A stretch of 64,000 bases of DNA from an uncultured Leptospirales bacterium (GCA_964645775.1 CAZYBU010000008.1:2957-66956); one strand, 5' to 3'. Positions 24,408 to 41,178 are shown, numbered from the stretch's first letter. A program made the numbers and translations. Notes: generated by a model not told the origin, from the letters alone.

Positions 24408-26216
24408 CTACATCCACTCTTCCCGGATCTGCACAGCCGAAAGGTCTTCCAATTCAAAAGATTTACGTCTCGCGTATAGATTGGGTAGAAAATTCCTGGC
24501 GAAGAAGTTCGCGGTCTCCACCTTGCCCCTGTAGAAGCAATAGTCAGGATGGTCTTCAGGCAGATCCTTCGACTTCTCCAGGGCGATAAGGGCCTGTTCC
24601 AGCAGAAGATGGGCCACAGCCACTTCACCGCAGCACTCCAGGAACCTGGTTGAAGTCAGGGGAATGAGGTCCTGCTTTTCGCTGCCAAAGAGGGTGCCGT
24701 ACTTCTCTACCATGGCCTCAAGATTATCGATTCCATCGGCGAGGACAGAGCAGCTGTCCGTTACATCGTCGACCCGGCAGGCCCTGTCTATGAATCCCCG
24801 CATCTCATCAATCCATGCCCGGTAAGCCCGCCCCTCCTTCATCTTCAGTTTGCGTCCCACCAGGTCGATGGACTGGATAAAGGTGGTTCCGTCCCAGAGG
24901 GAGAGTATCTTGCAGTCCCGGGCGTACTGTTCAATGGGGTACTCCGATGTATACCCGTACCCTCCCAGTATCTCGATACCCATGGAGGTCACGTCCCATA
25001 TGCGGAGGGAACAGTATCCCTTTATTATGGGCGTAAAGAAGTCCAGGCTCTCCTGTGCAAGCCGGGCCTCCTCTTCTTCTTCACTGCCGTGGGCGATATC
25101 CTCGAAGAAGTATCCCCTGTAGGTCAGAACCCTCATCCCCTCGGCCAGGGACTTGATGGACATGAGAAGCCTCCGAACTTCGGGATGCTCGATGATCCGG
25201 ACCCGGCCGTCGCCCTTTTTTCCAAAGCGGGTTCCCTGGACCCGTTCCTTCGCGTACTCCAGGGCGTTGGCGTAGATGTTCTGGGCGAAGGCAGTACTCT
25301 CCAGGCCCACGGCCATGCGGGCCACGTTAACCATCTGGAACATGTAGGCCAGGCCCATCCCCTCCTCCCCGATGAGATGACCGTAGCAGGCATCATTATC
25401 ACCGTAGCTCATCTGGCAGGTGGCCGACCCGTGGAGCCCCATCTTGTGTTCTATGCCCACGCAGGTCACGTCATTGGGCTCACCCATGCTTCCGTCCTCA
25501 TTGACCCATATCTTCGGCACGGCAAAAAGGGAAACTCCCTTGGCCCCGTCCGGGGCCCCTTCCACCCGGGCCAGGACCATGTGTACGATGTTCTCTGTCA
25601 GGTCATGGTCCCCGGAGGTGATGAAAATCTTGGAACCGGTTACACGATAGCAGTCTCCATCCTTTACAGCTTTCGCGCCGATCATGTGCGCGTCGGAACC
25701 GACATCCGGTTCAGTCAGGGCCATGGTCCCTCCCCAGGTACCGTCGTAAAGCTTCTCGCAGAAGAGTCCCTTCTGTTTTTCATTACCAAAATTCTCAATC
25801 AGGGCGCCCTGCCCGGGTCCCATGCCGGAATAGGTACCAAAGGTGAAATTTGCGCTCATGAAAAATTCCGTGGCCGCCTCCGCTATGACAAGGGGGAGTC
25901 CCTGGCCGCCATAGTCCGGGCTCTGGGTCAGGGCAAACCAGCTTCCTTCCCTGAAGAGATCCCAGAGAGGGTGAAAGCACTTCGGGGCGTATACCTTTCC
26001 GTTTTCAAAACGCGCAGGGTCCTCCCGGTCCGTGTCCTGGAAGGTGGGGGCGATCCGGTTCAGGGCGATCTTCTCTGCCTGTTCCAGGATCATCTCGAAG
26101 TCTTCCATGGAGAAGAGGGTGTACTTCTCAAAGGAGAGGAGTTTCTCCACCTGGAGGTGCTCGTTCAGCACGAAGTGGACGTCCCGGCTGTCCCTTTTGT
26201 AATAATTATTTCCCAT
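24408..26216 (-). CDS. acyl-CoA dehydrogenase, long form
   Basis: 602 aa. Paralogous to 21189..23057 (same architecture). Confidence 0.85.
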   Translation of the reverse strand: MGNNYYKRDSRDVHFVLNEHLQVEKLLSFEKYTLFSMEDFEMILEQAEKIALNRIAPTFQDTDREDPARFENGKVYAPKCFHPLWDLFREGSWFALTQSPDYGGQGLPLVIAEAATEFFMSANFTFGTYSGMGPGQGALIENFGNEKQKGLFCEKLYDGTWGGTMALTEPDVGSDAHMIGAKAVKDGDCYRVTGSKIFITSGDHDLTENIVHMVLARVEGAPDGAKGVSLFAVPKIWVNEDGSMGEPNDVTCVGIEHKMGLHGSATCQMSYGDNDACYGHLIGEEGMGLAYMFQMVNVARMAVGLESTAFAQNIYANALEYAKERVQGTRFGKKGDGRVRIIEHPEVRRLLMSIKSLAEGMRVLTYRGYFFEDIAHGSEEEEEARLAQESLDFFTPIIKGYCSLRIWDVTSMGIEILGGYGYTSEYPIEQYARDCKILSLWDGTTFIQSIDLVGRKLKMKEGRAYRAWIDEMRGFIDRACRVDDVTDSCSVLADGIDNLEAMVEKYGTLFGSEKQDLIPLTSTRFLECCGEVAVAHLLLEQALIALEKSKDLPEDHPDYCFYRGKVETANFFARNFLPNLYARRKSFELEDLSAVQIREEWM

Positions 26217-26706
26217 GGGACTTCTCCCCGTCGATGATGGTAAAGTGTGTGATATCCTGGATATTTCCCTGCATCTCTTCAGGCTTCCGGAAAACGGCCC
26301 GTACCCTCATGCCGACTTTTATCCTGTCCACGTTCACCTCGTCGATGATATGGGAGAATATACTGTCCGCACCGTCCATGCGGATATACCCGTAGGTGTA
26401 GGGTATGGGCCGCTGGAGTCCTGTGGCCGGGTCGAGAAAGGGATAGTTCACCACGGAAAAGGCGGTAATGGTTCCCTCGTCCGATAAGGGGACAAGTTCA
26501 TCGCATTCCGTGAAGCAGGGACCGCAGACCCGCCTGGGCGGCACGTAGACCTTCTTGCAGGATGGACATCGTATTCCCAGGAGACGCCCCCTCTCCCTTA
26601 TCTCTTTAAAGAACAGGGTGCCCGGCTTACCCACGGACCACTCGTAGGGCATGGGTGTCGCAAAGGACACGGTAAGCAGATCTTCATATAGTCGTTCGTT
26701 GCTCAT
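26206..26706 (-). CDS. DUF35 Zn-ribbon/OB-fold protein
   Basis: CPSCKKVYVPPRRVCGPC zinc ribbon plus OB-fold. Confidence 0.8.
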   Translation of the reverse strand: MSNERLYEDLLTVSFATPMPYEWSVGKPGTLFFKEIRERGRLLGIRCPSCKKVYVPPRRVCGPCFTECDELVPLSDEGTITAFSVVNYPFLDPATGLQRPIPYTYGYIRMDGADSIFSHIIDEVNVDRIKVGMRVRAVFRKPEEMQGNIQDITHFTIIDGEKSHGK

Positions 26707-26720: not shown

Positions 26721-27890
26721 TTACAGTTCGTTACTCAGGATCATGACATCGGACCAGAAGCACCCGCCGAAACCGGTGGCCAGGGCGTTCTTCACTTCCG
26801 GCACCTGGCGTTTGTCACCCTTTCCCATGACCTGGATGGCCGCCTCGGCCACGCGCAGGATGGCTGTTGCCCCAATACAATTGGTACTGATCACCCCTCC
26901 CGAGGGATTGACGGGAATCTTTCCGCCCATGTGGGTATTTCCCTCCCGGACGAACTTCGCTCCCTCTCCGGGACCACAGAACTGCAAATCCTCGATCCAC
27001 TTGAGCCCGGCCCAGGTATAGGGCAGGTAGAGCTCGGCGACGTCCAGTTCCTCAGCCGGCTTCGTTATGCCCGCCTGTTTGTAGGCGTCCCTGGAAGCCC
27101 GCTGGAGGGAGACCAGTCCCTCGGTATAGTTGGTCGAGTCCCCGAACCAGGTATAGGTATGTCGAACGGCCGTTCCCCTGACCCAGGCCGGTTTGGAGGT
27201 CATCTTCCTGGCCACATCTTCGGCCGCGAAGATCACAGCCCCGGCCCCGTCCGTGCGGGGACAGATGTCACCCAGTTTAATAGGGTAGGCCAGCATGGGA
27301 GATTCCATGATCTCCGCAACACTCAGGGGTTTCTGGAGGTGGGCAAAGGGATTGTTCAGGGCATTGGCCCGGTCCCTTTCGGCGATGAGAGCCGCGTTCT
27401 CCTGTGTGGCCCCGTACTGTTCCATGTAGGCCGTGGCCTCCGTGGCCAGGCTCGGTATGGCACCCGAGTAGGAGAACCGGTCCCAGATGGGATCGCTGCA
27501 GGTTATGATTGCGGCCGTGGTATCGCTCTCGGAGTTCTTCTCCCATCCTATGGCCAGGACCCGGTCGAAAAGACCGCTGGCCACGTGGTAGTATGCGGCG
27601 ATGGCCACGGAAGCTCCCGTGGTACCGCCCGTGGAGACCTTCATGATCGGTTTCATGACTCCGCCGGTCCCCTCTACGCTCCAGGTATCCACGTAATTTA
27701 TGGATTCAAAGTGGTCCATGTTACCGATAACTATCGCGTCGATATCGGCGATTGTGATTTCACAGTCCTCCAGGGCCCGGGTTACGGCTTCGTTAATCAT
27801 CTCCCTCTGGTTAACATCGGGCCTGTGACTTTTATGGTAGGTCTGTCCTGTTCCGACTATGGCTACGTTTCGTCCCATGCTTAACCTCAC
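26721..27890 (-). CDS. thiolase-fold protein, Cys-less 'type A' (SCP-x/Ltp2-like)
   Basis: Thiolase fold. Nucleophile position reads STGGTTGAS (no Cys). C-terminal STNCIGATA (Asn in place of His). Start overlaps the stop of the type B partner (27887). Confidence 0.75.
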   Translation of the reverse strand: MRLSMGRNVAIVGTGQTYHKSHRPDVNQREMINEAVTRALEDCEITIADIDAIVIGNMDHFESINYVDTWSVEGTGGVMKPIMKVSTGGTTGASVAIAAYYHVASGLFDRVLAIGWEKNSESDTTAAIITCSDPIWDRFSYSGAIPSLATEATAYMEQYGATQENAALIAERDRANALNNPFAHLQKPLSVAEIMESPMLAYPIKLGDICPRTDGAGAVIFAAEDVARKMTSKPAWVRGTAVRHTYTWFGDSTNYTEGLVSLQRASRDAYKQAGITKPAEELDVAELYLPYTWAGLKWIEDLQFCGPGEGAKFVREGNTHMGGKIPVNPSGGVISTNCIGATAILRVAEAAIQVMGKGDKRQVPEVKNALATGFGGCFWSDVMILSNEL

Positions 27891-29029
27891 ACAACGCTAC
27901 TCAGGACCCAGAGGCAGTGACTCTGCCCGCAGGGACCGTTGATTCCCTGGGCCACGGCTGTCCTGGCTCCCTCTACCTGCCGTTTACCCGCGTCTCCCCG
28001 AACCTGGAGGGCTGCTTCGATAACACGGGCCAGGCCCGCAACCAGGGCAGCGTGAGATGAAAGGACGCCTCCCGAAGGATTCACGGGAAGGTCCCCTCCG
28101 GCCAGGGTCAGACCCTGTTCCAGGAGGGTCATACCCTCGCCCGGACCGCAGAATCCCATCCCCTCCAGCCAGAGTGGTTCCATGTAGGTAAAGGCGTCAT
28201 AGAGTTCCACCACGTCGACCTCTTCCAGGCGGTTGTTGATTCCGGCCATGGCAAAGGCCCTGTCCGCGGCCTGGCGCAGGGCCCGGGGTGTCTCCAGTTC
28301 ACGATCACCGATCATGTACTCGTCGGCGCAGTGTGCGATCCCCCTGATCCAGGCCGGTTTACTCTTAGCCTTTTCCACTATCTCCCGGTTGCCAATGATA
28401 ACAGCGGCCGCGCCGTCACTTACCGGGCTGCAGTCCAGCTTCTTCAGGGGTTCCGCCATTTTTCTGGAATTCATCACGTCATCCACGGAGATATCCATGG
28501 GAAGGTGGGCCAGGGGATTCTTCCGTCCGTTTCCGTGGTTCTTCACGGATATACGGGCCAGGGACTCCTCAGATACACCGAAGGTATCCATGTACCTGCG
28601 GGCCTGTAGGGCCGAGGAGCTGACGGATTCCAGTCCCAGGTGACGCTGAAAGACCGGGTCGAACATCCCGTTCGTCACATACCGGATGTCCCCCTCGCTT
28701 CCCTTGCAATGAGCCACGACAAGGGATGTCCTGTTTCCACCCAGGACCCTCATGGCTCCGTAGAAGGCGCCGAAGGCACCGTCCCCTTCCACCGTGGAGA
28801 TGTTCTTGTCCTGCCCACCGGAAGCGTCTCCCACGGCCATGCCGGAGATGGTACGGCCGTCAAAGAAGTCGTTGGAGACCGTGACCACGCTGTCGATATC
28901 ATCAATGGTAAGCCCCGCGTCATCCAGGGCCATGCGTGTCACGTCGAAAACAAGGTCCGCGTAGATCTCATCTTTCTTCCGTTTCTCGTAATTTGTCTGT
29001 CCGGTCCCGACTATTGCTATATCATCCAT
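27887..29029 (-). CDS. thiolase-fold protein, Cys-less 'type B'
   Basis: Thiolase fold. Nucleophile segment STVEGDGAF (no Cys). C-terminal SGGVLSSHAALVAG retains His. Confidence 0.75.
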   Translation of the reverse strand: MDDIAIVGTGQTNYEKRKKDEIYADLVFDVTRMALDDAGLTIDDIDSVVTVSNDFFDGRTISGMAVGDASGGQDKNISTVEGDGAFGAFYGAMRVLGGNRTSLVVAHCKGSEGDIRYVTNGMFDPVFQRHLGLESVSSSALQARRYMDTFGVSEESLARISVKNHGNGRKNPLAHLPMDISVDDVMNSRKMAEPLKKLDCSPVSDGAAAVIIGNREIVEKAKSKPAWIRGIAHCADEYMIGDRELETPRALRQAADRAFAMAGINNRLEEVDVVELYDAFTYMEPLWLEGMGFCGPGEGMTLLEQGLTLAGGDLPVNPSGGVLSSHAALVAGLARVIEAALQVRGDAGKRQVEGARTAVAQGINGPCGQSHCLWVLSSVV

Positions 29030-29030: not shown

Positions 29031-29495
29031 TCAGCTCTCCCCTATCACTTCAAAGCATTCTATGTCCAGGATATGCCCCTTTCTCTCTTCACGGAACCTG
29101 GCCCGGACCCGGGTTCCCCGTTTCAGGGAATCGAGACCATCCTGCACCAGGTGGGCCAGAGAGACGTTACTCCCCTCAAGGCGGACCAGAACATAGGCGA
29201 AGGGTGGATCAAAGGGTTGAAGCACAAAGGGATAATGCACTATGGTAAAGGATTCAACAACGCCTTCGGTGGAGAGCTCCACCCAGTCCTCCATGGGCAC
29301 GAAACAGGTGCCGCAGTTCTTCCTGGGCGGGACATAGGTCCGGCCGCATTTGGCGCACGTGTTGCCCAGGATTTTTTTCTCGTCACGGATCCCCCGAAGA
29401 AACCGGCTGCCGGTCTCCCCGACCCACCATGTATAGGGCACCGCGATCTGTCCCTTCAGGGTCATTCCTTCCACATCCTTTAACCAGTCCGCCAT
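29031..29495 (-). CDS. DUF35 Zn-ribbon/OB-fold protein
   Basis: CAKCGRTYVPPRKNCGTC zinc ribbon plus OB-fold. Confidence 0.8.
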   Translation of the reverse strand: MADWLKDVEGMTLKGQIAVPYTWWVGETGSRFLRGIRDEKKILGNTCAKCGRTYVPPRKNCGTCFVPMEDWVELSTEGVVESFTIVHYPFVLQPFDPPFAYVLVRLEGSNVSLAHLVQDGLDSLKRGTRVRARFREERKGHILDIECFEVIGES

Positions 29496-29524: not shown

Positions 29525-30754
29525 TCAGACCGTGAGCATAAGCGCTTCGCCCTGGGAGAGACCTCCGCATATTGCGGCCACGCCTCTTCCTCCGCCCCTG
29601 CGCATAAGCTCGTACATCAGGGTCATGGTTATACGTGCGCCGCTGGCGCCCACCGGATGGCCGATGGCAATGGCGCCGCCGTTCACGTTTGTCTTCTCCT
29701 TGAGGAGATCCATCTTCTTCCGGTCTCTGCCCGCCAGTTCCTTGAGGGAGACCAGGGTAACGGCCGCGAAGGCCTCATTTATCTCGATAAGGTCGATATC
29801 ATCGATAGTTGAACCGGCCCGGGAAAGCATCTTATCAATGGCCTGGGCCGGAACGCAGGCCATGTACTTGGGGGAACCGGCCGCGGCCTGGGTATAGTCA
29901 ACCCTGGCCAGGGGCTCCAATCCCTTCTCCTCAGCCTTCTTCCGCGACATGAGAACGATGGCCGAGGCCCCGGAGTTCATGCCCGGAGCGTTGCCGGCCG
30001 TTACTGTTGGGCTTCCGTACACAGGTTTAAGGCGGGCCAGCTTCTCCATGCTGGAGTCTTCCCTGGGCGACTCGTCCCGGTCCATGACAACAGGGTCACC
30101 CTTTCTCCGGGGTGCCTCACAGGTCATCATCTCCTCGCCTACCTTGAACTTCCCGGCTTCAAATGCCTGGAACCATCTCCGGTGGCTTCCCATGGCCCAC
30201 TCGTCCTGTTCCTCGCGGGAGACATCGTACTCAACGGCCACTTCCCCCGCGTCCGTTGCCACGGGAGCGAATCCCCGGCGTCCGTAACCCAGTTCAAAGA
30301 GGACATCCTCCAGAGGCATGTGTCCCAGACGGGACCCCCACCTTGCCTTCTCAGCCGGGGCAATAAGGGCAGCGTTACCCATGTTCTCCGCGCCGGAAGC
30401 GATAACTATCTCCGCGTTCCCGGAACGGATCGACTGGTACCCCAGGCGCATTGCCGTCATGGATGAACAGCAGGCCCGGTCAAGGGTAAGGGAGATGTTA
30501 TCATCAGGAAAACCGGCGCCAAGGGTTATCTGCCGCGCCGGCACGTTAGTGTAGAGGGAGTACTCGGCCGGGATACAGGTCCCGTAGTAGACCTCGTCCA
30601 CCTCGCTCTTATCCAGGTTTATGCGTTCGGTCACTTCCTTCAGAGTTGCGATACTGAGATCAAAGCTCAGAACATTCTTTAATACTCCGTCAAACTTCCC
30701 GAAAGGGGTCCGAACCGCGCTTACGATAACAACATCATCAGGGTTTGTGCTCAT
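29525..30754 (-). CDS. acetyl-CoA C-acyltransferase (thiolase II, catalytically complete)
   Basis: Nucleophile Cys (RACCSSMTAM), GHPVGASG and CGGLSQG C-terminal motifs. Confidence 0.85.
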   Translation of the reverse strand: MSTNPDDVVIVSAVRTPFGKFDGVLKNVLSFDLSIATLKEVTERINLDKSEVDEVYYGTCIPAEYSLYTNVPARQITLGAGFPDDNISLTLDRACCSSMTAMRLGYQSIRSGNAEIVIASGAENMGNAALIAPAEKARWGSRLGHMPLEDVLFELGYGRRGFAPVATDAGEVAVEYDVSREEQDEWAMGSHRRWFQAFEAGKFKVGEEMMTCEAPRRKGDPVVMDRDESPREDSSMEKLARLKPVYGSPTVTAGNAPGMNSGASAIVLMSRKKAEEKGLEPLARVDYTQAAAGSPKYMACVPAQAIDKMLSRAGSTIDDIDLIEINEAFAAVTLVSLKELAGRDRKKMDLLKEKTNVNGGAIAIGHPVGASGARITMTLMYELMRRGGGRGVAAICGGLSQGEALMLTV

Positions 30755-30784: not shown

Positions 30785-32302
30785 CTATCGGAAACCGTAG
30801 TCCTTATCCAGGATATCTCCGGCACACAATATCCCTGAAACAATGGCACAGTCCATGGCCACACCGTATCCCCGGGCCGTGTCTCCCGCGAAGAACAGTC
30901 CCTCAACGTGCCTCGAACGTACCGGGAGTTTCTGTGTGCCGGCCTGGGAGATGCTCTTGGCCACGCCTTCCAGCTTCCAGCATACCAGGTCCAGTTTCCA
31001 GTCCACGCTCTCGTTAAAACCGGGGTAAATCTCCTCCATGAAATGGGGGAGTCGATCCACGATCTTACGGACTAAACTCTTATCCAGAGCCTCCTTCTCG
31101 GTAAGGGGGAGATAGGCGGTGTAGAGATATTTCCCTTCCGGGGCCACGGTCGGATCAATGGCGGACTGGATATTCCAGCAGATGTAGACATCGGAATCAA
31201 AGCCTTCTTCTTTGGGAAGGACACAGGTATTCTTGATTCCCATGCGCGCCTCCTCTTCCGGCATAACCAGTTTATTGAGCCCCATGTAGGGAACGTAACT
31301 TCCGTACCCGTACATCGATTCAGTCTTTTTCACCCAATCTTCCGGAAAGAGGGATGGATCGATCATCTTGAAGGTAAGCTGGCCCGGCACGTTGCTGACC
31401 ACCCGGCCTGTGCCGATGGTTTTATCTCCTTCGGGCGTCTCGACCCGGACACCGGTGACCTTCGCATCTTCAACCTCGATCTGCCGCACCTTCGCGTTCA
31501 GCATCAGCTCGCCGCCGAAGGACTCGAACTTGCGGGCCACAGCTTCGGACCATTTCATGGTACCGCCTTCCACGAAGCCTCCCACGTGCCGCAGAACTCC
31601 CTTCGAGAGCTTGGGCTGGAAGGCGTGCTTGAAGTACCGGAAGATATCTCCCATGGAGATGTCTTCCGGGTTATTAATCGTGGAGAAGAGGGTTGCCACC
31701 GTGTGAAGGTGATTATAGATGATTTCGTTTTTTGTTATTCCTTTCTTCTCCGCCCAGTCCCGGAAAGAGACCCCTTCCAATCCGTCGATCTCCTCGTCGG
31801 ACATGGTGTAGGCATCGGAGTAGAAATCGAGGTAGGGTATGCCCTCCTCTTTGGCCATGATCTTCAGCTTCGGGTCGATATTGCTGCCGGCCACGTCCCG
31901 GTAGATCTCGCCCTTGTACCAGGAGGCATAATCGGAACCGTACCGGTTCACATCCTCTATGCCGCCGATCAGTTCCTCGAAGTCCATCATGTATCCTGCA
32001 CCATTGGCGCTCAGAGCGTGGTACCCGATGTCGAGTGTGTAGCCGCGGAGCATGCCGGAGGATACCAGTACCTCTGCCGGGGGCGTGGAGTTGGCAATAT
32101 AGGTGTACTGGCTCTTTAGGATGTTCCTGTACCAGTCCAGGCCCTTATCGGTTATATCATCACCGCTTACGGACAGGGCCCGTCCCCCTACCCGGTCGTT
32201 CTGTTCAACGAGGAGTACCTTTTGCCCCTCCTTTGCCAGAAGAGTGGCCACGGAAAGCCCTCCCACACCGGCACCGATAACTATCGTGTCGTAACTCTTC
32301 AC
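30785..32302 (-). CDS. FAD-dependent oxidoreductase, phytoene desaturase (CrtI) family
   Basis: N-terminal GAGVGGL...EQNDRVGGRA dinucleotide-binding motif. 505 aa with CrtI-like length and architecture. Confidence 0.8.
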   Translation of the reverse strand: MKSYDTIVIGAGVGGLSVATLLAKEGQKVLLVEQNDRVGGRALSVSGDDITDKGLDWYRNILKSQYTYIANSTPPAEVLVSSGMLRGYTLDIGYHALSANGAGYMMDFEELIGGIEDVNRYGSDYASWYKGEIYRDVAGSNIDPKLKIMAKEEGIPYLDFYSDAYTMSDEEIDGLEGVSFRDWAEKKGITKNEIIYNHLHTVATLFSTINNPEDISMGDIFRYFKHAFQPKLSKGVLRHVGGFVEGGTMKWSEAVARKFESFGGELMLNAKVRQIEVEDAKVTGVRVETPEGDKTIGTGRVVSNVPGQLTFKMIDPSLFPEDWVKKTESMYGYGSYVPYMGLNKLVMPEEEARMGIKNTCVLPKEEGFDSDVYICWNIQSAIDPTVAPEGKYLYTAYLPLTEKEALDKSLVRKIVDRLPHFMEEIYPGFNESVDWKLDLVCWKLEGVAKSISQAGTQKLPVRSRHVEGLFFAGDTARGYGVAMDCAIVSGILCAGDILDKDYGFR

Positions 32303-32326
32303 CGTCTTCTTCCTCCTCTTCGATTC

Positions 32327-33352
32327 TTAGAGAATGACGTATTCATGCAGCATTTCTCCCGTTACCCGGTCTTCTTCTCCATCTATCACCAGATCGAGGG
32401 TATAGTCCGCCAGGAAGCGGTAATAGTACATGTCCCATTCCGCCCGTTTCGGCAGGGTCATCTGTTCTACCACCCTGTGAGTCCTGATATCGAGTTTCAT
32501 AGTAACTCCCAGGGTATCGGTGCTGCAAACCAGGCGGTTCGGGTACTCCTGACCCAGACTCTCGTCCTTTACCATGTCATGGAAGTCGATCTCCATCCTG
32601 TCCGTGGAGAGCTCGATCTTCCCGTCCCGGGCTATTAAAAGGGGCGCGCCCGTGGGAGCGTCCTCTTCCCGGGGCAGGACCCATCCCCAGTCGATGGTGT
32701 ATCTCTCGTTATGAATACGGCCCCAGTACCAGCCGCGGTATGTTTTGTAAACATGGTAGTTGCCCCAGTTATGGTCATGGTAGCCGAATCCCTTCACCGG
32801 TATGGTCTCTCCCTTGACATAGAGTTCACCCTCCACGTCTGCCGCGGGCATGGGAACCACCCATCCGGCCACCATGCCACTTTCCTCGTCCTTGTAATTG
32901 AACCCGGTACCCGGCTTCCAGGGAGACACGGTGTTTCGAAAGACCAGGTCAAAGCCGTTACCGTTTATGTCCATAACCACCCGGTAATGGTCTCCCGTGT
33001 CCCGGACGTAGCTTTTATTCATGCGGACATCGCACCAGTTGGGGTTCGCGGAGATGGACTTCGCGTCACAGATCTCGTAGCGGTCCACCCGGGTCCCGTC
33101 AGGCCTGTATACGAAGAACTGGAGCGACGGGATCATGGGATTGAGGAACATGTTCCGGTAATGGTACGTGATGACCAGGTGATAGCCGTTGGTAAAGCCG
33201 GCGTCAAAGTACCACCACTCGTAATACTCCTCGACGTTCTCCTCGTACTTGTGGGAGGCGTCATCCCTCCGGACAAAACCGGTCGGTTTTCTCTCGGCTC
33301 CCCGTTCGCCCTCGAAGTAGGCCAGGTAATTTTTCTTTGACCGTTCATCCAT
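32327..33352 (-). CDS. CrtC/AttH-like lipocalin-fold putative hydratase (tentative)
   Basis: EWWYFDAGF and HDHNWG segments resemble hydroxyneurosporene-synthase/AttH family signatures. Family assignment from memory only. Confidence 0.45.
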   Translation of the reverse strand: MDERSKKNYLAYFEGERGAERKPTGFVRRDDASHKYEENVEEYYEWWYFDAGFTNGYHLVITYHYRNMFLNPMIPSLQFFVYRPDGTRVDRYEICDAKSISANPNWCDVRMNKSYVRDTGDHYRVVMDINGNGFDLVFRNTVSPWKPGTGFNYKDEESGMVAGWVVPMPAADVEGELYVKGETIPVKGFGYHDHNWGNYHVYKTYRGWYWGRIHNERYTIDWGWVLPREEDAPTGAPLLIARDGKIELSTDRMEIDFHDMVKDESLGQEYPNRLVCSTDTLGVTMKLDIRTHRVVEQMTLPKRAEWDMYYYRFLADYTLDLVIDGEEDRVTGEMLHEYVIL

Positions 33353-33362: not shown

Positions 33363-33818
33363 TCACTCCGGCCGGAAATGCTTTATATCCAGGATATTGC
33401 CCTGACGGTCCTCCTCGAAAACAGCACGGACCCTCATCCCGATCTTCATCTGGCTGTAATCCACCTCGTCCACGAAATGGGTGATACCGGTATCCGCGCC
33501 ATCCAGCTTGACAACCGCGTAGATGAAGGGCGCTTTTCTGGGTATGTGAGGCTCGTCGTAATGGACCCGGGTGAAGGTCTCCACTGTTCCTCCGGGACCC
33601 ACCTCGATCATATCATCCAGGGACATGGTGGTGTAAGTCTCCTGGCAGGTCTCCCTGGGGGGCCAGTAGACCTTTCCTTTATTGTTTTTCGTAGCCAGGA
33701 TCTTCTTCTCGTCCCGCAACGCCCTGAAAAAAGCAGAACCGACAATCCCGGCATAGTAGTTACACTTTACCTTGATCCGCTGATCATATTCCATGGGAGG
33801 ATAGTAGCTTTCGTTCAT
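33363..33818 (-). CDS. DUF35-like OB-fold protein with degenerate zinc ribbon
   Basis: OB-fold region aligns with neighbouring DUF35 proteins (VETFTRVHY...GMRVRAVFE). Only two Cys where the ribbon should be (KVKCNYY, RETCQE). Confidence 0.55.
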   Translation of the reverse strand: MNESYYPPMEYDQRIKVKCNYYAGIVGSAFFRALRDEKKILATKNNKGKVYWPPRETCQETYTTMSLDDMIEVGPGGTVETFTRVHYDEPHIPRKAPFIYAVVKLDGADTGITHFVDEVDYSQMKIGMRVRAVFEEDRQGNILDIKHFRPE

Positions 33819-33821: not shown

Positions 33822-34340
33822 TCACTCCTTATCCTTGTTCGGTTTTTCCTGGCCGGGAAGGGGATCAAAGTACCTGATGTCGGAAAGGTCCCCTTTTCTC
33901 ATGTCATCGGGATGAAAAACCGGTCTTACCCTCATGCCGACCCATAGCTTGTTGAACTCCGGTTCCATGTTCAGAAAATGATCAATGGAACTGTCGCATC
34001 CGTCCAGATGCACCGTGCAGTAAACAAAGGGGGGCTCATGGGGCTCTCCCGTTGTAGGGTCAGTCAGGGGAATGTACATGATCTGGTACGCACTGACCGA
34101 ACCTTCCGGGCCCACTTCCACCCATCCTTCATTTTGGACGTGACAGGTTGCGCAGACCACCCTGGGTGGAAGCTGTACACGCCCGCATTTTGGACAGCGG
34201 ATGGCAAAGAACCGCTTGTTCTCCTTGAGCTCGTACAGGAATTTTCCCATGTTCGGCCCCGCCGCGAAACGGTAGGGGACATCAACGATCAGGGGTATAT
34301 GAATAAGATCCTCTTCATGGATGTTCTCTTCAGATGCCAT
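33822..34340 (-). CDS. DUF35 Zn-ribbon/OB-fold protein
   Basis: CPKCGRVQLPPRVVCATC ribbon. Start moved to ATG 34340 (MASEENIHEE) with GAGGAGG SD. Lies 11 nt after the upstream gene's stop. Confidence 0.75.
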   Translation of the reverse strand: MASEENIHEEDLIHIPLIVDVPYRFAAGPNMGKFLYELKENKRFFAIRCPKCGRVQLPPRVVCATCHVQNEGWVEVGPEGSVSAYQIMYIPLTDPTTGEPHEPPFVYCTVHLDGCDSSIDHFLNMEPEFNKLWVGMRVRPVFHPDDMRKGDLSDIRYFDPLPGQEKPNKDKE

Positions 34341-34350: not shown

Positions 34351-35541
34351 TCAGTCCTTTGTTCCGTCCGAAAGTGCCGTAAGGGCCGTCCAGCAGGTTC
34401 CGCCGTAGGCCGTGGCCAGGGCCCTGTGTACTTCACCCGGGACCTGGTGATCACCCGCCTCACCCCGAATCTGGAGAACACACTCCCAGATACGGCACAG
34501 GGCCGTGGCACCGATGGCGTTGGTGCAGAGGACCCCACCCGAGGGATTAACCGGTATCTCTCCATCGATCTCGGTCATACCCTTTTCTATGAGCTTCCAG
34601 CCGTCTCCTCTTTCGCAGAGATGCAGGTCCTCGTACCAGACCAGTTCAGCCCAGGTGGCCGGCTCGTAGACCTCGAATACATCAAAATACTCTGCCGGTT
34701 TCTTGACTCCCAGCTTCTTGTAAATCCTTTCCGCAGAGACCTCGGAGAAACGGGGCTTGTCCGAATACATGTCCCTCCAGTTCAGCTCGAACTGTTCGTT
34801 ATGGGAGGTATCCATGGCCCGAATCCAGACCGGTTTTTTTGGTCCTTTTTTCGCCTTCTCTTTTGACTGCACGATAACGGCGCAGGCACCGTTGGAAGCA
34901 GGACACATGTCCAGGAGGCGTATGGGCCAGGCCAGCATGCGCGAGTTCAGGGCGTCCTGTATCCCGATATCGAGCTGGAGGTGGGAGAATTCATTCTTTC
35001 TCCCGTTCTGGCGGGACTTGACAGAGACCATGGCCGAGTGTTCCTCCGTGGCGCCGTACTTCGACATGTAGGTGGAACCCTGCTGGGCAAAGAAACCGAG
35101 CGCGGCACCTGCCGTTGAGCGTCCATAAAGGGGATGAGCGACCCCGCTCAGGATGGCGTTGGTGTCTCCTTCCTCCTGTTTTTCGAATCCGATAACCAGG
35201 ACCGTGTCATAAAGTCCGCTGGCCACAAAATGGGCCCCGGCATGGACCACGGTAGCCCCCACGGTTCCCCCGGTGGTAATCTTCACGCCCGGTTTGCCGT
35301 AATTACCCACGCCGCTGGCCATCCAGCAGTCCGTCATGTAGGTCCCTTCGAAGAATTCCATGTTCCCCTGGACAACGGCGTCCACCTGGTCCATGGTCAA
35401 TTCCGCGTCTTCCAGCGCGGCCCGGACGGCCTCGTTGACCATTTCTATCTGGTTAACGTCATGACGGCGGGCCGCGAACTTTGTCTGTCCTCCGCCGACG
35501 ATGGCAACCTGTCGTTTCATTGAAGCCTCCTTACTTACCAC
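34351..35541 (-). CDS. thiolase-fold protein, Cys-less 'type A'
   Basis: TTGGTVGAT at nucleophile position. C-terminal CTNAIGATA. Paralogous to 26721..27890. Confidence 0.75.
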   Translation of the reverse strand: MVSKEASMKRQVAIVGGGQTKFAARRHDVNQIEMVNEAVRAALEDAELTMDQVDAVVQGNMEFFEGTYMTDCWMASGVGNYGKPGVKITTGGTVGATVVHAGAHFVASGLYDTVLVIGFEKQEEGDTNAILSGVAHPLYGRSTAGAALGFFAQQGSTYMSKYGATEEHSAMVSVKSRQNGRKNEFSHLQLDIGIQDALNSRMLAWPIRLLDMCPASNGACAVIVQSKEKAKKGPKKPVWIRAMDTSHNEQFELNWRDMYSDKPRFSEVSAERIYKKLGVKKPAEYFDVFEVYEPATWAELVWYEDLHLCERGDGWKLIEKGMTEIDGEIPVNPSGGVLCTNAIGATALCRIWECVLQIRGEAGDHQVPGEVHRALATAYGGTCWTALTALSDGTKD

Positions 35542-36679
35542 TCAGTACGATGACGCAGTGATGCTGACCGCAAAACCCGCTGTGTCCCTGGGCCACGGCA
35601 GTCTTCACCCCATCCACCTGGTGCTCACCCGCACGACCGGCCACCTGTCTCCAGGCCTCGGCCACGCAGTTCAGACCCATTACATTGTGGGGGACCCCGG
35701 AGAGAACTCCCCCGGAGGGGTTAACCGGTATCCGGCCATTCAGCATGGTCTCCCCGGAATCGATGAGCTTACCGCCTTCACCGTTTCCACACAGGCCGAG
35801 ACCCTCTGTCCACATCAGCTCCTGGTAAGCGAACTCCTCGTCAACCTCGGCCACGTCTATCTCCCTGGAGGGGTACTGAATACCGGCCATTCCATAGGCC
35901 TGTTTCGCAGCATCCTCCAGGGAAGGAGTACGAGCCAGATCACGGTCTCCCGGATAGTATGCGTCGTAGCTCGTTCCGATACCGGTTACCCAGACCGGGT
36001 TCTTCGTTACCTTTTTCGCTTTCTTCTCTGATGCAAGAATCATGGCGACGGCGCCGTCCGTGTCCGGGGCCATCATCATTTCATGAATTGGTTCAGCCAC
36101 CATGGGAGACTCCAGCACATCCCGGATGGAGTAGTTCCCAAAATTATGTGCATAGGGGTTCCTGGCCCCGTTTGCCAGGTTTTTCTCCACAACCCGGGCC
36201 ACCTGTTCATCAGTTACTCCGAAGTCATGCTGGTACCGTCTCTGCTGCATGGCCGCAGCAGAGGTCCAGTCCAGACCGAGCATTCGGCTGAACAGAGGTT
36301 CCATTCCGTTGTTGCTCACCACGTTTCTCCGGGTGGCTGACATCTTGGTGTGGGCCATGATAAGGGTACAGTCGAACTCCCCGGAGAGTATCCCTATGGT
36401 TCCGTAAAATACGGCGGTGGAACCGTCCATGGCCATCTTCTCCTCGGTGCGAAGGTGCCCACCGATGACATCGGTGATCCCGATATTCGATATGGTCTGG
36501 CCGTCCCATATATCATGGGAACAGCTAATGCTGTTATCGATATCCTTCTCCATCTCCAGACCGGTCTCCTCAAAGACCTGCCGGATAACTTCCCAGCCCA
36601 GTTCCGAGTACTGGGCATCAACCCTCTTTGGGCTGAACCGGGTCTGGGCCACTGCCAGTATAGCTACCCTGTCGGACAT
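35531..36679 (-). CDS. thiolase-fold protein, Cys-less 'type B'
   Basis: DGSTAVFYG at nucleophile position. C-terminal GVPHNVMG. Paralogous to 27887..29029. Its stop overlaps the type A start. Confidence 0.75.
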   Translation of the reverse strand: MSDRVAILAVAQTRFSPKRVDAQYSELGWEVIRQVFEETGLEMEKDIDNSISCSHDIWDGQTISNIGITDVIGGHLRTEEKMAMDGSTAVFYGTIGILSGEFDCTLIMAHTKMSATRRNVVSNNGMEPLFSRMLGLDWTSAAAMQQRRYQHDFGVTDEQVARVVEKNLANGARNPYAHNFGNYSIRDVLESPMVAEPIHEMMMAPDTDGAVAMILASEKKAKKVTKNPVWVTGIGTSYDAYYPGDRDLARTPSLEDAAKQAYGMAGIQYPSREIDVAEVDEEFAYQELMWTEGLGLCGNGEGGKLIDSGETMLNGRIPVNPSGGVLSGVPHNVMGLNCVAEAWRQVAGRAGEHQVDGVKTAVAQGHSGFCGQHHCVIVLSGK

Positions 36680-36688: not shown

Positions 36689-37873
36689 CTATACCCGTTC
36701 AAATATGGTTGCTATTCCCTGGCCACCGCCGATGCAGAGGGTGGCCAGTCCGTATTTACCGCCTGTCCTGTGAAGCTCGTTAATCACGGCAATGGCCAAT
36801 CTTCCGCCCGACATGCCGTTGGGATGTCCGAAAGCTATGGCGCCACCGTGAGGGTTCCACCTCTCAGGGATGACTTTATGACCATTTTTCTCAAGAATCT
36901 TCATCACAGCCAGTGTCTGGGACGCGAAGGCCTCGTTGCACTCCACCACGTCCATCTCTTCAAGGGAGAGTCCGGCCACTTTCAGGGCCTTTTCGCATGC
37001 GTCGACAGGGGCTATACCCATGTACCGGGGCTCCCGTGCGGAAACGGCAGAAGCCACAAACCGGGCCTTAGGAGTAACCTTGAGCTCATCCGCCTTCTCC
37101 TTTGACATCATGAGAACGGCCACTCCGCCGTCATTCATGCCGGAGGAGCTGCCTGCCGTTACGGTTCCATCTTTCTTAAAGGCCGGTTTCAGTTTGGAAA
37201 GTTTTTCCAGGGTCGTCTCTCTGGGGTGCTCGTCCGTATCAAAGATAACGGGGTCCCCCTTTCGTTGAGGAATTTCCACGGGAACAATCTCGTCCCTGAA
37301 CAGCCCCCCATCGATTGCTTCTTTGGCCAGCTGCTGGCTGCGGAGGCCGAACTTGTCCTGCTCTTCCCGGCTGATCTGGAACTCCTCTGCCAGGATCTCT
37401 GCAATAATCCCCATGGGGACATTGGTCTGGTCATCGGGACCGGTCTGCCGGGTGATCCAGGCCGGGGGCGCCAGGGAGAAAGGTGCCTCCTGGCGTTCCA
37501 TCATGTAAGGCTGGCGGCTCCAGGACTCGCATCCGGCGGAGACATAGACATCACCGAATCCGGCCATAATATTGGCCGCCGCGCTGTTAATGGTCTGCAG
37601 GGAGGAACCGCACTGCCTCTCGATGGTTTGGGAGGGAACTGAAATGGGGTATCCTGCCGCCAGCGTTGCCCACCGGCCGATGTTCACGGCAGCGTTATTG
37701 GTGCAGGCGTGGCCCACCAGGATATCGTCCACCAGGGCCGGGTCTATGGTCATCCGTTCCCGCAGGCCCTTAAGCGCGAAGGCGGCCAGCTCCTCGGGCC
37801 GAAAGGTGGATAGGCTTCCCCCCATCCTGCCTATGGCCGTTCTGACTCCGTCTATATACATCACTTCTTTCAT
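36689..37873 (-). CDS. acetyl-CoA C-acyltransferase (thiolase II, catalytically complete)
   Basis: RQCGSSLQ nucleophile, FGHPNGMSG and LCIGGGQG C-terminal motifs. Confidence 0.85.
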   Translation of the reverse strand: MKEVMYIDGVRTAIGRMGGSLSTFRPEELAAFALKGLRERMTIDPALVDDILVGHACTNNAAVNIGRWATLAAGYPISVPSQTIERQCGSSLQTINSAAANIMAGFGDVYVSAGCESWSRQPYMMERQEAPFSLAPPAWITRQTGPDDQTNVPMGIIAEILAEEFQISREEQDKFGLRSQQLAKEAIDGGLFRDEIVPVEIPQRKGDPVIFDTDEHPRETTLEKLSKLKPAFKKDGTVTAGSSSGMNDGGVAVLMMSKEKADELKVTPKARFVASAVSAREPRYMGIAPVDACEKALKVAGLSLEEMDVVECNEAFASQTLAVMKILEKNGHKVIPERWNPHGGAIAFGHPNGMSGGRLAIAVINELHRTGGKYGLATLCIGGGQGIATIFERV

Positions 37874-37898
37874 GATAACTCTCCTTTCTCCCGGTGGG

Positions 37899-37914
37899 AC
37901 CGATAACTATCGGC
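37899..37914. promoter_or_regulatory. 16-bp palindrome ACCGATAACTATCGG(c) in crotonase-thiolase intercistronic gap
   Basis: Inverted 7-bp arms ACCGATA/TATCGG. Overlaps the crotonase stop codon. Ends 25 nt upstream of the thiolase start. Member of a dispersed family (see findings). Confidence 0.4.
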
Positions 37915-38701
37915 CCTTAAAATTAGCCTTCCGTTTCTCGAGGAAGGCGGTCATTCCCTCCGTCTTGTCTTCGGTGCCCATTACCAGTCCAAAGCACATG
38001 GCCTCCATGGCCAGCCCGGTTTTCAGGTCAGCCTGTATGCCGTTATTTATGGCTGTTTTGGCCATGTAGAGGGCAAAGGCCCCCTTGCTGGCGATCTTAT
38101 CTGCGATTTCCTGGACCTTTTCGTCCAGCTGATCGGCGGATACCACATGGTTAAGCATGCCGATATCCATGGCCTCCCGGGCGGAGATATAGTCACCAGT
38201 CATTATAAGTTCCTTGGCCTTTCCCACCCCTATGAGCCTGGGAAGGCGCTGGGTACCACCATAACCGGGGATGATTCCCAGGCGGATCTCGGGGAGGCCA
38301 AATTTAGCCGAGTCAACGGAGACCCGGATGTCGCAGGAGAGGGCCACCTCGGTACCGCCTCCCAGGGCCACGCCATTTATGCGTGCGATAACCGGCTTGG
38401 GAAAGTTTTCAATGTAGGAACAGATGGCCTGGCCGTTAGGAACTTCGTACACGGTCTCCACGTATCCTTCACCAGCATTCATGATGGATATATCCCCACC
38501 GGAGATAAAAGCCTTGTCTCCCGTACCGGTAAGCACAACCACGTGAATCTCATCATCCTTCAGGATGTCTTTTTCAAGGGCATCCTGTATCTCCAGCATG
38601 GTCACATGCCTGATCGCGTTCATTACTTTGGGGCGATCAACAGCTATGGTGGCTACGGCCCCATCCTTCGTTACCCTGATATCTTCATAGCTCATAATCA
38701 T
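37907..38701 (-). CDS. enoyl-CoA hydratase (crotonase family)
   Basis: Crotonase fold with oxyanion-hole segments (AFISGGDI, GVALGGGTEVAL). Confidence 0.85.
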   Translation of the reverse strand: MIMSYEDIRVTKDGAVATIAVDRPKVMNAIRHVTMLEIQDALEKDILKDDEIHVVVLTGTGDKAFISGGDISIMNAGEGYVETVYEVPNGQAICSYIENFPKPVIARINGVALGGGTEVALSCDIRVSVDSAKFGLPEIRLGIIPGYGGTQRLPRLIGVGKAKELIMTGDYISAREAMDIGMLNHVVSADQLDEKVQEIADKIASKGAFALYMAKTAINNGIQADLKTGLAMEAMCFGLVMGTEDKTEGMTAFLEKRKANFKGR

Positions 38702-38719
38702 TCTCCTTAAGAAACGATC

Positions 38720-39625
38720 TTAAAAGAGGTTTTTGAAGAGGGTTTTTGACCCGTCTTCATGGTAATCATAGAAACCCCTGCCATTCTTTTTACCAAGGCG
38801 TCCGGCTTCCACCATCTTACGATAGAGGATATTGACCGCATCCCTGGGATTGTGTGTGTAATCGTATACCGCGTCACCGGCAGCGACAATGATGTCGAAT
38901 CCGCCAAAATCGGCCAGCTCGCAGGGACCCATGGGATGACCCGCGCCCAGTTTCATGGCCTGGTCGACCTCCTCGGCCGTTGCCGTCCCTTCCAGGACGA
39001 TTTGGGCCGCTTCATGGTAGAGAAGCCCCAGGAGACGATTGACGATAAAGCCAGGAGTATCCTTTACCGTGACCCCGACCTTGCCAATACTCTTGCAGAA
39101 TTCCAGGACCGTATCAACGGTCTCCTGGCTGACGCCAATCGGTTTAACCACCTCAACAAGCTTCATGACAACGGCTGGATTGAAGAAATGCATGCCGATA
39201 ATCCTGTCTGGACGATCGGTGGCTCCTCCTATCTGGGTTACCGGCAGGACAGATGTATTTGAAGCCAGGATTGTTTCCGGCTTGCAGGCCTTATCCAGCT
39301 CGGCGAATACTTTCTTTTTCAGTTCAATGTCTTCGGGAATAGCTTCAATAACCAGGTCCGCATCAGCTGCCATCTTTTTAAGCTCGGTTCCGGTAGAAAT
39401 ACGACCAATGACAGCCTCTCCATCTTCTTTTGATATTTTACCCTTGGCCACAAAGTGTTTATCAATGCTGCCGGATATTTTCTGCATGGCCTTATCCAGG
39501 GCACCCTGATCGACATCATAGATACCTACCGTGAAACCGTTAAGGGCGGATACCTGGGCTATCCCATGCCCCATGGTCCCTGAACCGAGTACCGTCACTT
39601 TTTTGATATTCATGTAATCCTCCAT
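38720..39625 (-). CDS. 3-hydroxyacyl-CoA dehydrogenase
   Basis: VTVLGSGTMGHGIAQ NAD-binding motif. 301 aa with Hbd-like architecture. Confidence 0.85.
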   Translation of the reverse strand: MEDYMNIKKVTVLGSGTMGHGIAQVSALNGFTVGIYDVDQGALDKAMQKISGSIDKHFVAKGKISKEDGEAVIGRISTGTELKKMAADADLVIEAIPEDIELKKKVFAELDKACKPETILASNTSVLPVTQIGGATDRPDRIIGMHFFNPAVVMKLVEVVKPIGVSQETVDTVLEFCKSIGKVGVTVKDTPGFIVNRLLGLLYHEAAQIVLEGTATAEEVDQAMKLGAGHPMGPCELADFGGFDIIVAAGDAVYDYTHNPRDAVNILYRKMVEAGRLGKKNGRGFYDYHEDGSKTLFKNLF

Positions 39626-40278: not shown

Positions 40279-40290
40279 AAATCACCATGA

Positions 40291-40338
40291 TTGACAGGTC
40301 AGTCAACATGCGCACTGTATCGATTGATTGGTCAATCG
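40291..40338. promoter_or_regulatory. candidate TetR operators: TTGACaggtcaGTCAA (40291-40306) and CGATTGAttggTCAATCG (40321-40338)
   Basis: Two inverted repeats within 60 nt upstream of the TetR start. The second shares the TTGATTGA half-site with the site at 17829. Confidence 0.45.
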
Positions 40339-40385
40339 TCAATATTAATTTTCTTCCATGACTCTTTTTGATAAAAAAAATCAAA

Positions 40386-40404: not shown

Positions 40405-40469
40405 GCTTTTTTTTCCAAATCAGGCTTCCCGGGCGTGTACCATATATAACACAAAAGAGGAAGAATAGG

Positions 40470-41175: not shown

Positions 41176-41178
41176 AAT

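Follow-up and report, generated by a model that had tools for sequence, protein, structure and literature searches.

It is poorly understood how strict anaerobes deal with methyl branches and isolated double bonds when they break down lipid chains. Such obstacles occur in acids derived from phytol, in branched lipids of archaea and bacteria, and in the unsaturated long-chain fatty acids of digesters and sediments; to our knowledge, the solutions described so far depend on oxygen or on biotin carboxylases, molybdenum hydroxylases or glycyl-radical enzymes. A 64,000-nucleotide stretch of DNA from an uncultured Leptospirales bacterium (GCA_964645775.1 CAZYBU010000008.1:2957-66956), which we call the window, raises this question through two adjacent genes embedded in a large beta-oxidation operon: CrtCL, which encodes an AttH/CrtC-fold protein, and CrtIL, which encodes a CrtI-like flavin adenine dinucleotide (FAD) enzyme. 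We tentatively propose, as a reading that is quite possible though short of probable, that CrtCL and CrtIL are a functionally coupled cytoplasmic pair whose oxygen-independent processing of double bonds prepares branched or unsaturated acyl chains for cleavage by a retro-aldol reaction. Proteins of both kinds have been described before; what is new to us is that they are paired, and conserved as a pair, within an aldolase-rich operon of anaerobic beta-oxidation. The proposal is built on their folds, their cofactor motifs, an acidic/aromatic motif, the operon, co-inheritance of the two genes, and the loss of thiolase residues in neighbouring proteins.

CrtCL occupies positions 32327-33352 (341 residues, ATG start) and CrtIL positions 30785-32302 (505 residues, GTG start), both on the minus strand, as are all relevant genes of the cluster. 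These open reading frames, and the EWWYFDAG and HDHNWG motifs within the first, are exactly as the first-pass annotation had given them. Strong Shine-Dalgarno sequences, GGAGG and GAGGGAGGAG, stand ahead of the two genes. Spacers of 10-25 nucleotides had been described, which is nearly right: 10 nucleotides separate the DUF35 gene at 33363-33818 from CrtCL, 24 separate CrtCL from CrtIL, and 30 separate CrtIL from the true thiolase gene at 29525-30754. A promoter/terminator scan found nothing convincing that would break the run of genes around the pair.

The assignment of the two products to CrtI-type FAD enzymes and CrtC/AttH-like proteins holds at the superfamily level. For CrtCL it is borne out by the fold and by a family-profile match to AttH, but only in part by Pfam, in which PF07143 (CrtC) reaches 22.2 bits, just under its cut-off of 22.5, PF24137 (the Diels-Alderase N-terminal domain) reaches 21.1 bits, and PF17186 is not matched; several CrtCL orthologues carry a precomputed PF07143 match. 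The Rhodobacter-type CrtC equivalog NF045922 scores 17 bits against a cut-off of 400. Searches with phmmer starting from CrtCL gave AttH 2ich at an expectation value (E) of 1e-3 and kievitone hydratase 7a0q at 4e-3, and a CrtCL family profile improved these to 6e-6 and 4.5e-4. The AlphaFold model, made with 53 homologues, has a predicted local distance difference test (pLDDT) score of 95.6 and is all-beta, with two barrels. Over its full length Foldseek matched it to kievitone hydratase 7a0q, AttH 2ich and the pericyclases CghA, Fsa2 and Phm7 (E 5e-13 to 1e-10, template modelling (TM) scores 0.60-0.66), with alignments to 7a0q, 2ich, 6kbc and 7e5t (E 5e-13 to 1e-11) spanning approximately 335-400 columns. 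As modelled, CrtCL belongs to the AttH/CrtC-like two-barrel superfamily, and the predicted fold is unambiguous.

Conserved residues point to the part of this fold that may be catalytic. In the translation, EWWYFDAG lies at residues 45-52 and HDHNWG at 192-197, within the longer GYHDHNWG. EWWYFD (45-50) aligns with IEWWYV of AttH, and GYHDHNWG with AWLDREWS of AttH and TWYDRQWG of kievitone hydratase, Asp193 falling opposite the Asp of WLDREW and WYDRQW. In CrtC the essential residues are H239, W241, Y266 and D268 by R. gelatinosus numbering (PMC4717167). The Y191-x-D193 spacing of CrtCL, which is about 98% conserved, is that of Y266/D268, a match of spacing made without direct alignment to CrtC; W164, some 27 residues upstream, is also conserved, and there is no His two residues before it to correspond to the H239/W241 arrangement. 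Across 120 cluster representatives that are 25-40% identical, conservation of 87-100% is seen at D31, E45-W-W-Y-x-D50, W164, G188, Y191-H-D-H-N-W-G197, W208-x-W210-G-R212, R312 and E337, and the GYHDHNW core is present in 15 loci selected by strict pattern match, all of the archaeal ones included. We regard CrtCL as a putative acid-base (de)hydratase or isomerase for a carbon-carbon double bond.

CrtCL is nonetheless set apart from its characterised relatives. It shares with CrtC, kievitone hydratase and AttH the two-beta-barrel fold, EWWY, the central-strand Asp and W-x-W, but it is only 15-18% identical to them, and its clade has an invariant set of its own (H192, H194, N195, R212, R312 and E337). 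Unlike these relatives it has neither a signal peptide nor a membrane association, its N-terminus being hydrophilic and the protein predicted to be soluble and cytoplasmic, and its context is one of catabolic acyl-coenzyme A (acyl-CoA) metabolism rather than of pigments or phytoalexins. A HMMER search of 1.84 billion representatives returned 1180 relatives at E ≤ 1e-3 and only 58 at E ≤ 1e-30, and the CrtCL clade is thus small and well defined within a large superfamily. A cluster representative that is 100% identical to CrtCL exists, and an exact-sequence look-up gave no match. AttH-like homologues of the clade also occur as tandem gene pairs (in the related loci that we number L032, L033, L074 and L075) and as a fused, double-length protein of 799 residues (P0268); domain fusions among AttH-like relatives (tandem AttH, acetolactate decarboxylase, acyltransferase_3) offered no functional lead.

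The flavoprotein assignment of CrtIL rests on PF01593 (Amino_oxidase), the profile by which it was to be judged, which matches residues 14-498 at E 4.5e-25 and 89.3 bits (cut-off 19.8), and CrtIL belongs to the flavin amine-oxidase/CrtI structural superfamily. Among 44 homologues the FAD motifs are invariant or nearly so: the N-terminal GxGxxG (G10, G12, G15), E33, and the C-terminal G473-D474-T475. The AlphaFold model (pLDDT 94.6) places highest, by Foldseek, the uncharacterised Methanosarcina mazei oxidoreductase 3ka7, the carotenoid desaturase 4rep, the plant phytoene desaturase 5mog and P. furiosus PF1083 (3nrn), with E from 1e-24 to 1e-22 for the first three; not far below these, and in an overlapping range of E-values, come Rab-GDI, protoporphyrinogen oxidase and amine oxidases. 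A family profile gave its best match to CrtI 4dgk (E 2.8e-15), and the aligned stretch includes the substrate domain beyond the Rossmann motif. The CrtI, phytoene desaturase (PDS) and CrtD enzymes (4dgk, 5mog, 4rep) are thus the nearest structures and profile matches, with intact FAD motifs, but CrtIL is only about 17% identical to them, stands in no carotenoid context, and is predicted to be soluble, with no membrane segment and no signal peptide.

Curated NCBIfam models place the protein outside the named carotenoid enzymes. The crtI_fam model TIGR02734 gives 66.8 bits (cut-off 238.1), CrtID 67.9 (640), carot_isom 53.4 (587), HpnE 50.3 (283) and CrtD 46 (550-580); taken over the CrtID, CrtISO, HpnE, CrtO and CrtD models, scores of 46-68 bits stand against cut-offs of 283-1000. 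Since all curated equivalog cut-offs are missed by far, neither CrtCL nor CrtIL is an orthologue of a carotenoid enzyme, and CrtIL is a CrtI/PDS-like flavoprotein that is no orthologue of any named one. We regard it as a putative desaturase, isomerase or saturase of a chain that contains a carbon-carbon double bond. A flavoenzyme of the CrtI type would need a pre-existing double bond or a carbonyl next to the site of reaction, and a fully saturated chain is not an expected substrate; the notion that CrtIL desaturates a saturated chain finds no support. A 15-bp-stem inverted repeat at 31637-31669, within the CrtIL coding sequence, encodes the conserved peptide PEDISMGDIFR in nearly self-complementary codons, and is more likely a chance product of the protein motif's conservation than a regulatory hairpin.

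What might two such folds do together without oxygen? Hgs, an AttH-like protein, and Has, of the phytoene-desaturase family, hydrate isoprenoid lipid double bonds in anaerobic archaea without oxygen; the double bonds that Hgs hydrates are introduced by a partner desaturase, a B12 radical S-adenosylmethionine (SAM) enzyme whose gene overlaps hgs, and in the hydratases of AttH/CrtC fold that have been characterised to date, the water goes to the tertiary carbon of an isoprene-type double bond (bioRxiv 10.1101/2025.10.20.683597). Compared by description, the window's pair has one member of each fold and the same logic of desaturation followed by hydration; the archaeal enzymes differ in being biosynthetic, in acting on membrane ether lipids, and in that the partner of Hgs is a B12 radical-SAM enzyme and not a flavoprotein. 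The limonene dehydrogenase CtmAB belongs to the COG1233 phytoene-dehydrogenase family (PMC4109377), and a CtmAB-like delta-24 desaturase and 25-phosphosteroid lyase both take part in anaerobic sterol side-chain degradation (PMC11061730). CtmAB and the delta-24 steroid desaturase, again compared by description, are like CrtIL phytoene-dehydrogenase-family flavoproteins, and they serve catabolism by acting without oxygen at allylic isoprenoid positions ahead of CoA-dependent degradation; they are heteromers of two paralogues with flavin covalently bound to His, whereas the window has a single CrtIL gene. The 25-phosphosteroid lyase of Sterolibacterium denitrificans (9fzn/9g2i/9g4c) has the fold of CrtCL and acts without oxygen on a tertiary carbon of an isoprenoid side chain, but it is a weaker structural match (Foldseek E 2e-8 to 9e-8, TM 0.56-0.57) and requires a kinase partner; neither phmmer nor the family profile found sequence similarity between it and CrtCL, and neither a tertiary-alcohol kinase nor a molybdenum enzyme is present among the window genes scanned with Pfam. 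Both folds, then, have members that carry out oxygen-independent isoprenoid chemistry, which is a precedent for the pair.

The neighbours of the pair supply the second half of the argument. Pfam confirms two flanking thiolase/DUF35 modules, much as the first-pass annotation had listed them, with two corrections: a DUF35 gene at 33822-34340 had been overlooked, and the SCP-x-type "thiolases" have no nucleophilic Cys. In a MAFFT alignment with the operon's two true thiolases (36689-37873 and 29525-30754), which keep this Cys, Gly stands at its position in all five SCP-x-type proteins (35531-36679, 34351-35541, 27887-29029, 26721-27890 and 11836-13272); these proteins were also aligned with solved SCP2-thiolases, an archaeal thiolase and BbsB. 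The GHP histidine is missing as well in 34351-35541 and 26721-27890. At the HDCF site the five carry YDAF (27887-29029), YEPA (34351-35541), YLPY (26721-27890), DEEF and HDAF. An automatic annotation of the five as acetyl-CoA acetyltransferases would be wrong.

Steroid side-chain aldolases carry YDHF (Ltp2) or YDCY (Sal) at the HDCF site, the Tyr being the catalytic base, and in Sal Gly replaces the nucleophile and thiolysis is impossible (PMC12329534). To judge by these residues, the SCP-x-type neighbours are not thiolases but would be aldolase-like proteins of the Ltp2/Sal kind, which strengthens the link to retro-aldol steps that had been suggested earlier. They resemble Ltp2-ChsH2(DUF35) and Sal-Shy in their thiolase fold, in Gly for Cys, in a Tyr motif at the HDCF site (YDAF in 27887-29029), in having a DUF35 partner, and in the MaoC hydratase and acyl-CoA dehydrogenases nearby. 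Unlike those systems, the Cys-less proteins of the window form heterologous pairs, each made of two different subunits and accompanied by two DUF35 proteins that stand free; agreement in the catalytic residues is incomplete (YEPA, YLPY and DEEF in other subunits); and the hosts are strict anaerobes, in which steroid-ring genes are absent from the neighbourhood. The combination of SCP-x-type proteins, DUF35, MaoC and long acyl-CoA dehydrogenases would, by analogy, follow the dehydrogenase/MaoC-hydratase/aldolase logic of steroid side-chain cleavage.

Related loci were gathered from species-representative genomes, contigs with specific homologues, and metagenomes, and the cluster proteins of the window were mapped onto them. 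CrtCL is directly followed by CrtIL in 13 loci (L002-L007, L023-L027, L030 and L031), with gaps of 25-146 nucleotides, in Syntrophales, Smithella, unclassified delta-proteobacterial metagenome-assembled genomes (MAGs), Desulfomonile, and one MAG each of Thermodesulfobacteriota and Chloroflexota. In L008 the pair is arranged divergently, with a TetR gene between its members, and in Desulfatibacillum alkenivorans DSM 16219 (L021; FQZU01000031.1, at about 45-57 kb), the only cultured carrier found, 4 kb of DNA separates them, a stretch that holds MaoC, PHP, YfcE and a long acyl-CoA dehydrogenase. Over the 13 adjacent pairs the identities of CrtCL and CrtIL to their window counterparts co-vary (r = 0.96), falling into classes of 53-56% with 65-70% and 38-43% with 47-48%, and the two genes have thus been inherited jointly. 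Their constant companions are two SCP-x-type proteins and two DUF35 proteins; frequent companions are a long acyl-CoA dehydrogenase, MaoC, a beta-keto-acid cleavage enzyme (BKACE), an AMP-ligase, PHP, and the classical hydratase/dehydrogenase/thiolase trio. The pair keeps its place within the operon in over 15 loci, which span several phyla.

The context outside the window likewise fails to look carotenogenic. The Pfam gene tables of loci L020-L025 hold no gene of the phytoene synthase (crtB) or prenyl-diphosphate synthase (crtE) type and no other carotenoid gene, and the remaining loci, onto which only the cluster proteins of the window were mapped, have beta-oxidation and DUF35 genes around the pair; orthologues are therefore not confined to carotenoid-biosynthesis contexts. 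Below approximately 38% identity to CrtCL, AttH-like homologues occur in other contexts and without CrtIL; these contexts (L011, L012 and the majority of L036-L105) have nothing to do with beta-oxidation and were set aside as uninformative for CrtCL function. Distant homologues of both genes (23-30% identity, GYHDHNW present) are found in two Thermoplasmata MAG loci, L018 (LSSG01000068.1, 3236-11384) and L015 (MUGC01000060.1, 1081-7092), next to two to four UbiA prenyltransferases and geranylgeranyl-reductase-like flavoproteins, in what looks like an archaeal isoprenoid-lipid or quinone modification cluster. A second CrtI-like paralogue with 47% identity lies 6-7 kb away at the end of the operon in L003 (18407-19855) and L006 (17226-18674), and in D. 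alkenivorans a truncated amino-oxidase-like gene (11555-12601, 348 residues) directly follows CrtIL; such second genes hint at a possible two-subunit enzyme in some lineages. Public labels for the pair genes range over hypothetical, "predicted secreted hydrolase", "hydroxyneurosporene synthase", "phytoene dehydrogenase-like" and, as the best KO, "prolycopene isomerase".

Annotation of the operon with Pfam and NCBIfam profiles shows how much acyl-CoA machinery surrounds the pair. The operon extends from its first gene, a TetR regulator with a YsiA/FadR-like C-terminal domain (39658-40278), down to about position 11233. Downstream of the regulator, the classical beta-oxidation trio spans 36689-39625 on the minus strand: 3-hydroxyacyl-CoA dehydrogenase (38720-39625), enoyl-CoA hydratase (37907-38701) and the Cys-containing thiolase (36689-37873). 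Then come the two Cys-less partners (35531-36679 and 34351-35541, the latter, with YEPA in place of HDCF, aligned with 6hsj, 7yvy and 7pxp_C as well) and the two DUF35 genes. The overlooked one (33822-34340), whose start we place at MASEENIH, has homologues in the same position in L001-L006, L010, L021, L027 and L031 and is fused with the other DUF35 into one protein in the Chloroflexota locus L025; the other (33363-33818, OB_ChsH2_C), directly upstream of CrtCL, keeps its position in related loci. Beyond CrtIL the second module comprises the true thiolase at 29525-30754, a DUF35 protein (29031-29495), the Cys-less proteins with YDAF and YLPY (27887-29029 and 26721-27890), and a last DUF35 protein (26206-26706). 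A long acyl-CoA dehydrogenase (24408-26216) and a MaoC hydratase (23940-24398) follow, and after them a second long acyl-CoA dehydrogenase (21189-23057), a short-chain dehydrogenase/reductase (20289-21098) and a short acyl-CoA dehydrogenase (19126-20280), a group co-conserved in related loci, and then a FadD11-like long-chain acyl-CoA ligase (15999-17861), BKACE (15101-15958), a two-subunit CoA-transferase (13304-15183), and the fifth Cys-less thiolase-fold protein (11836-13272) with its DUF35-like partner (11233-11823). All of these are on the minus strand; BKACE, the PHP protein and the acyl-CoA dehydrogenases fell below all NCBIfam cut-offs and so receive no finer name.

BKACE and CoA-transferase subunits recur near the pair in L005, L007, L016, L023, L024 and L027, which implies that the pathway passes at some point through a free beta-keto acid. 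The operon also includes, on the minus strand, three genes of hydrolase- or phosphoesterase-like type, namely a CehA-McbA-like PHP metallohydrolase (18466-19116), a YfcE phosphodiesterase (17887-18465) and a weakly matched PP2C/SpoIIE-like protein (23078-23989), and the PHP gene is kept beside the pair in many loci, that of D. alkenivorans included. Just past the operon, on the plus strand, are a metallo-beta-lactamase-fold gene (10281-11168) and a tungsten-type aldehyde:ferredoxin oxidoreductase (8308-10269), from which another YsiA/FadR-type TetR gene (7537-8133, minus strand) diverges. The oxidoreductase is a possible sink for a retro-aldol aldehyde, although its membership in the system is no more than inferred. 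Its presence, together with the taxonomy of the relatives, all of which are Syntrophales, Desulfobacterota or Chloroflexota assemblies, supports the earlier supposition that the host is an anaerobe. Finally, a B12-binding radical-SAM/DUF4070 gene (41179-43008, minus strand) lies beyond the TetR gene, 8 kb from the pair. It was considered as a Ted-like desaturase partner of CrtCL and rejected, as it sits in a stretch (approximately 40000-44000) of 40-46% GC and is absent from every related locus; being conserved in none of them, it is probably unrelated to the cluster.

The pair probably modifies a double bond in an unusual, that is branched or unsaturated, lipid chain. In the sequence of events that we favor, CrtIL would desaturate or isomerise a position next to an existing double bond or carbonyl of an acyl chain that may be methyl-branched, isoprenoid-like or otherwise unsaturated. 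Asp193 of CrtCL, in the Y-H-D-H-N-W motif, would protonate the resulting double bond, most likely a trisubstituted or conjugated one, and water would be added to give a tertiary or allylic alcohol, although the order of the two steps may differ and the reverse direction is also possible. The long acyl-CoA dehydrogenases and MaoC hydratase would bring this product into register for the Cys-less, Ltp2/Sal-like thiolase-fold/DUF35 complexes, which would cleave it by a retro-aldol reaction and not by thiolysis. The fragments could then become substrates of the ordinary hydratase/dehydrogenase/thiolase set, of BKACE and the CoA-transferase, or of the acyl-CoA ligase; the aldehyde:ferredoxin oxidoreductase may be a further destination.

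A more specific version, which the first-pass annotation had put forward as a route past methyl branches, holds that CrtIL and CrtCL install a tertiary alcohol at which the aldolases would cut, so that a methyl branch is passed without oxygen or biotin carboxylation. The oxygen-free precedents in both folds (CtmAB, 25-phosphosteroid lyase and Has/Hgs) make an isoprenoid route plausible and the aldolase-like neighbours agree with it, but they do not identify the substrate as an isoprenoid. That the pair belongs to an undescribed, oxygen-independent catabolism of isoprenoid or methyl-branched chains, for example chains derived from phytol or archaeal lipids, in syntrophs, sulfate reducers and some Chloroflexota is in our judgment doubtful.

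Several observations weigh against our proposal. The cluster holds no isoprenoid-specific gene such as a geranyl-CoA-type carboxylase or 3-hydroxy-3-methylglutaryl-CoA (HMG-CoA) lyase. Dehydrogenase, MaoC hydratase and aldolase might in principle suffice to get past a 3-methyl branch, which leaves the need for CrtCL and CrtIL unexplained. TRAP or ABC binding proteins and acyl-CoA ligases adjoin the pair in L021 and L024, which suggests a soluble carboxylic acid rather than a long lipid as the substrate. The co-varying identities reflect shared descent and do not count as independent events. In L028 (LAHQ01003637.1) a 53%-identical CrtCL (414-1436) is followed not by CrtIL but by a FadH-like protein (1608-3545; 645 residues, Oxidored_FMN and Pyr_redox_2), a flavin mononucleotide (FMN)/FAD ene-reductase that may be a non-orthologous replacement of CrtIL; an MFS transporter is also present. 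L035 has a 37%-identical CrtCL homologue with SCP-x and DUF35 genes and no CrtIL. The one cultured carrier, D. alkenivorans, we take to be a degrader of n-alkenes and fatty acids, and our literature searches found no publication on the pair.

The serious rival, if in our view an unlikely one, is an auxiliary role in the oxidation of unsaturated straight-chain fatty acids such as oleate and linoleate, in which the pair would clear cis or mis-positioned double bonds that block beta-oxidation. CrtIL would then be an FAD-dependent isomerase or saturase of the CrtISO or RetSat kind, CrtCL a hydratase or double-bond-shifting isomerase, and the hosts syntrophic or sulfate-reducing degraders of long-chain fatty acids. 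An operon under a FadR-type TetR regulator and equipped with a long-chain acyl-CoA ligase fits this well, as do the prolycopene-isomerase labels of orthologues and the carriers themselves, which are of the Syntrophales/Smithella type, abundant in digesters, with one CrtCL cluster found on 113 contigs. The FadH-like, 2,4-dienoyl-CoA-reductase-type protein that takes the place of CrtIL in L028 also fits the handling of unsaturated fatty acids, but this replacement is seen on a single contig. The preference of known AttH/CrtC-fold hydratases for tertiary carbons of isoprene-type double bonds speaks against straight chains, and the tight, constant link to Cys-less aldolase-like and DUF35 proteins would be needless for them.

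It is also conceivable, though rather improbable, that the pair acts before CoA activation on a hydrophobic free substrate: an alkene, an ether lipid, or an isoprenoid alcohol or hydrocarbon such as phytol or squalene. Addition of water, accompanied by desaturation or not, would yield an alcohol or a cleavable intermediate, and what is formed from it, an aldehyde and next an acid, would be channelled into the operon by the aldehyde:ferredoxin oxidoreductase and the acyl-CoA ligase. The known members of both folds, namely CrtC, kievitone hydratase, Hgs, Has, CtmAB and 25-phosphosteroid lyase, act on free lipids and not on CoA esters, the alkene degrader D. alkenivorans has the pair, and the oxidoreductase, a metallohydrolase and a phosphodiesterase stand beside or inside the cluster. 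Against this, both proteins are predicted to be soluble; the charged residues R212, R312, E337 and D31, conserved in the CrtCL clade, suggest a polar handle on the substrate; and the transporters near the pair in L021 and L024 are carboxylate transporters.

A lyase-first route modelled on sterols is very unlikely. CrtCL would here turn a tertiary alcohol into an alkene by eliminating water or phosphate, and CrtIL would oxidise or hydroxylate the allylic position in the manner of CtmAB or the delta-24 desaturase, in keeping with the structural matches to 25-phosphosteroid lyase, with the logic of the sterol side-chain pathway (PMC11061730, PMC8449060) and with the phosphoesterase-like genes conserved in the cluster. 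But no locus examined holds a kinase or a molybdenum hydroxylase, CrtCL is structurally closer to the hydratases and AttH than to the lyase, to which the sequence searches found no similarity, and CrtIL is encoded by a single gene, in contrast to the two-subunit CtmAB and delta-24 desaturase. Least probable of all is a biosynthetic role, in which the genes would make carotenoids in the CrtC/CrtD manner, or other isoprenoids, and would stand among beta-oxidation genes by accident. CrtC and CrtD adjoin in purple-bacterial carotenoid clusters, and both proteins match carotenoid-family profiles weakly, but we reject this reading on the equivalog scores and on a gene context that is conserved over several phyla and that, in the gene tables of L020-L025, includes no phytoene synthase or prenyl-diphosphate synthase gene.

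The proposal of double-bond processing by CrtCL and CrtIL ahead of retro-aldol cleavage can be tested, as a cultured carrier exists in D. alkenivorans DSM 16219. The analysis defines a compact, conserved gene set in organisms that carry out syntrophic lipid and hydrocarbon degradation, and this set joins two folds with oxygen-free precedents on isoprenoid double bonds to aldolase-type relatives of thiolases. If the proposal is true, it would give the AttH/CrtC and CrtI families a new catabolic role, and would correct the labels "prolycopene isomerase", "hydroxyneurosporene synthase" and "predicted secreted hydrolase" that their members in these organisms now carry.

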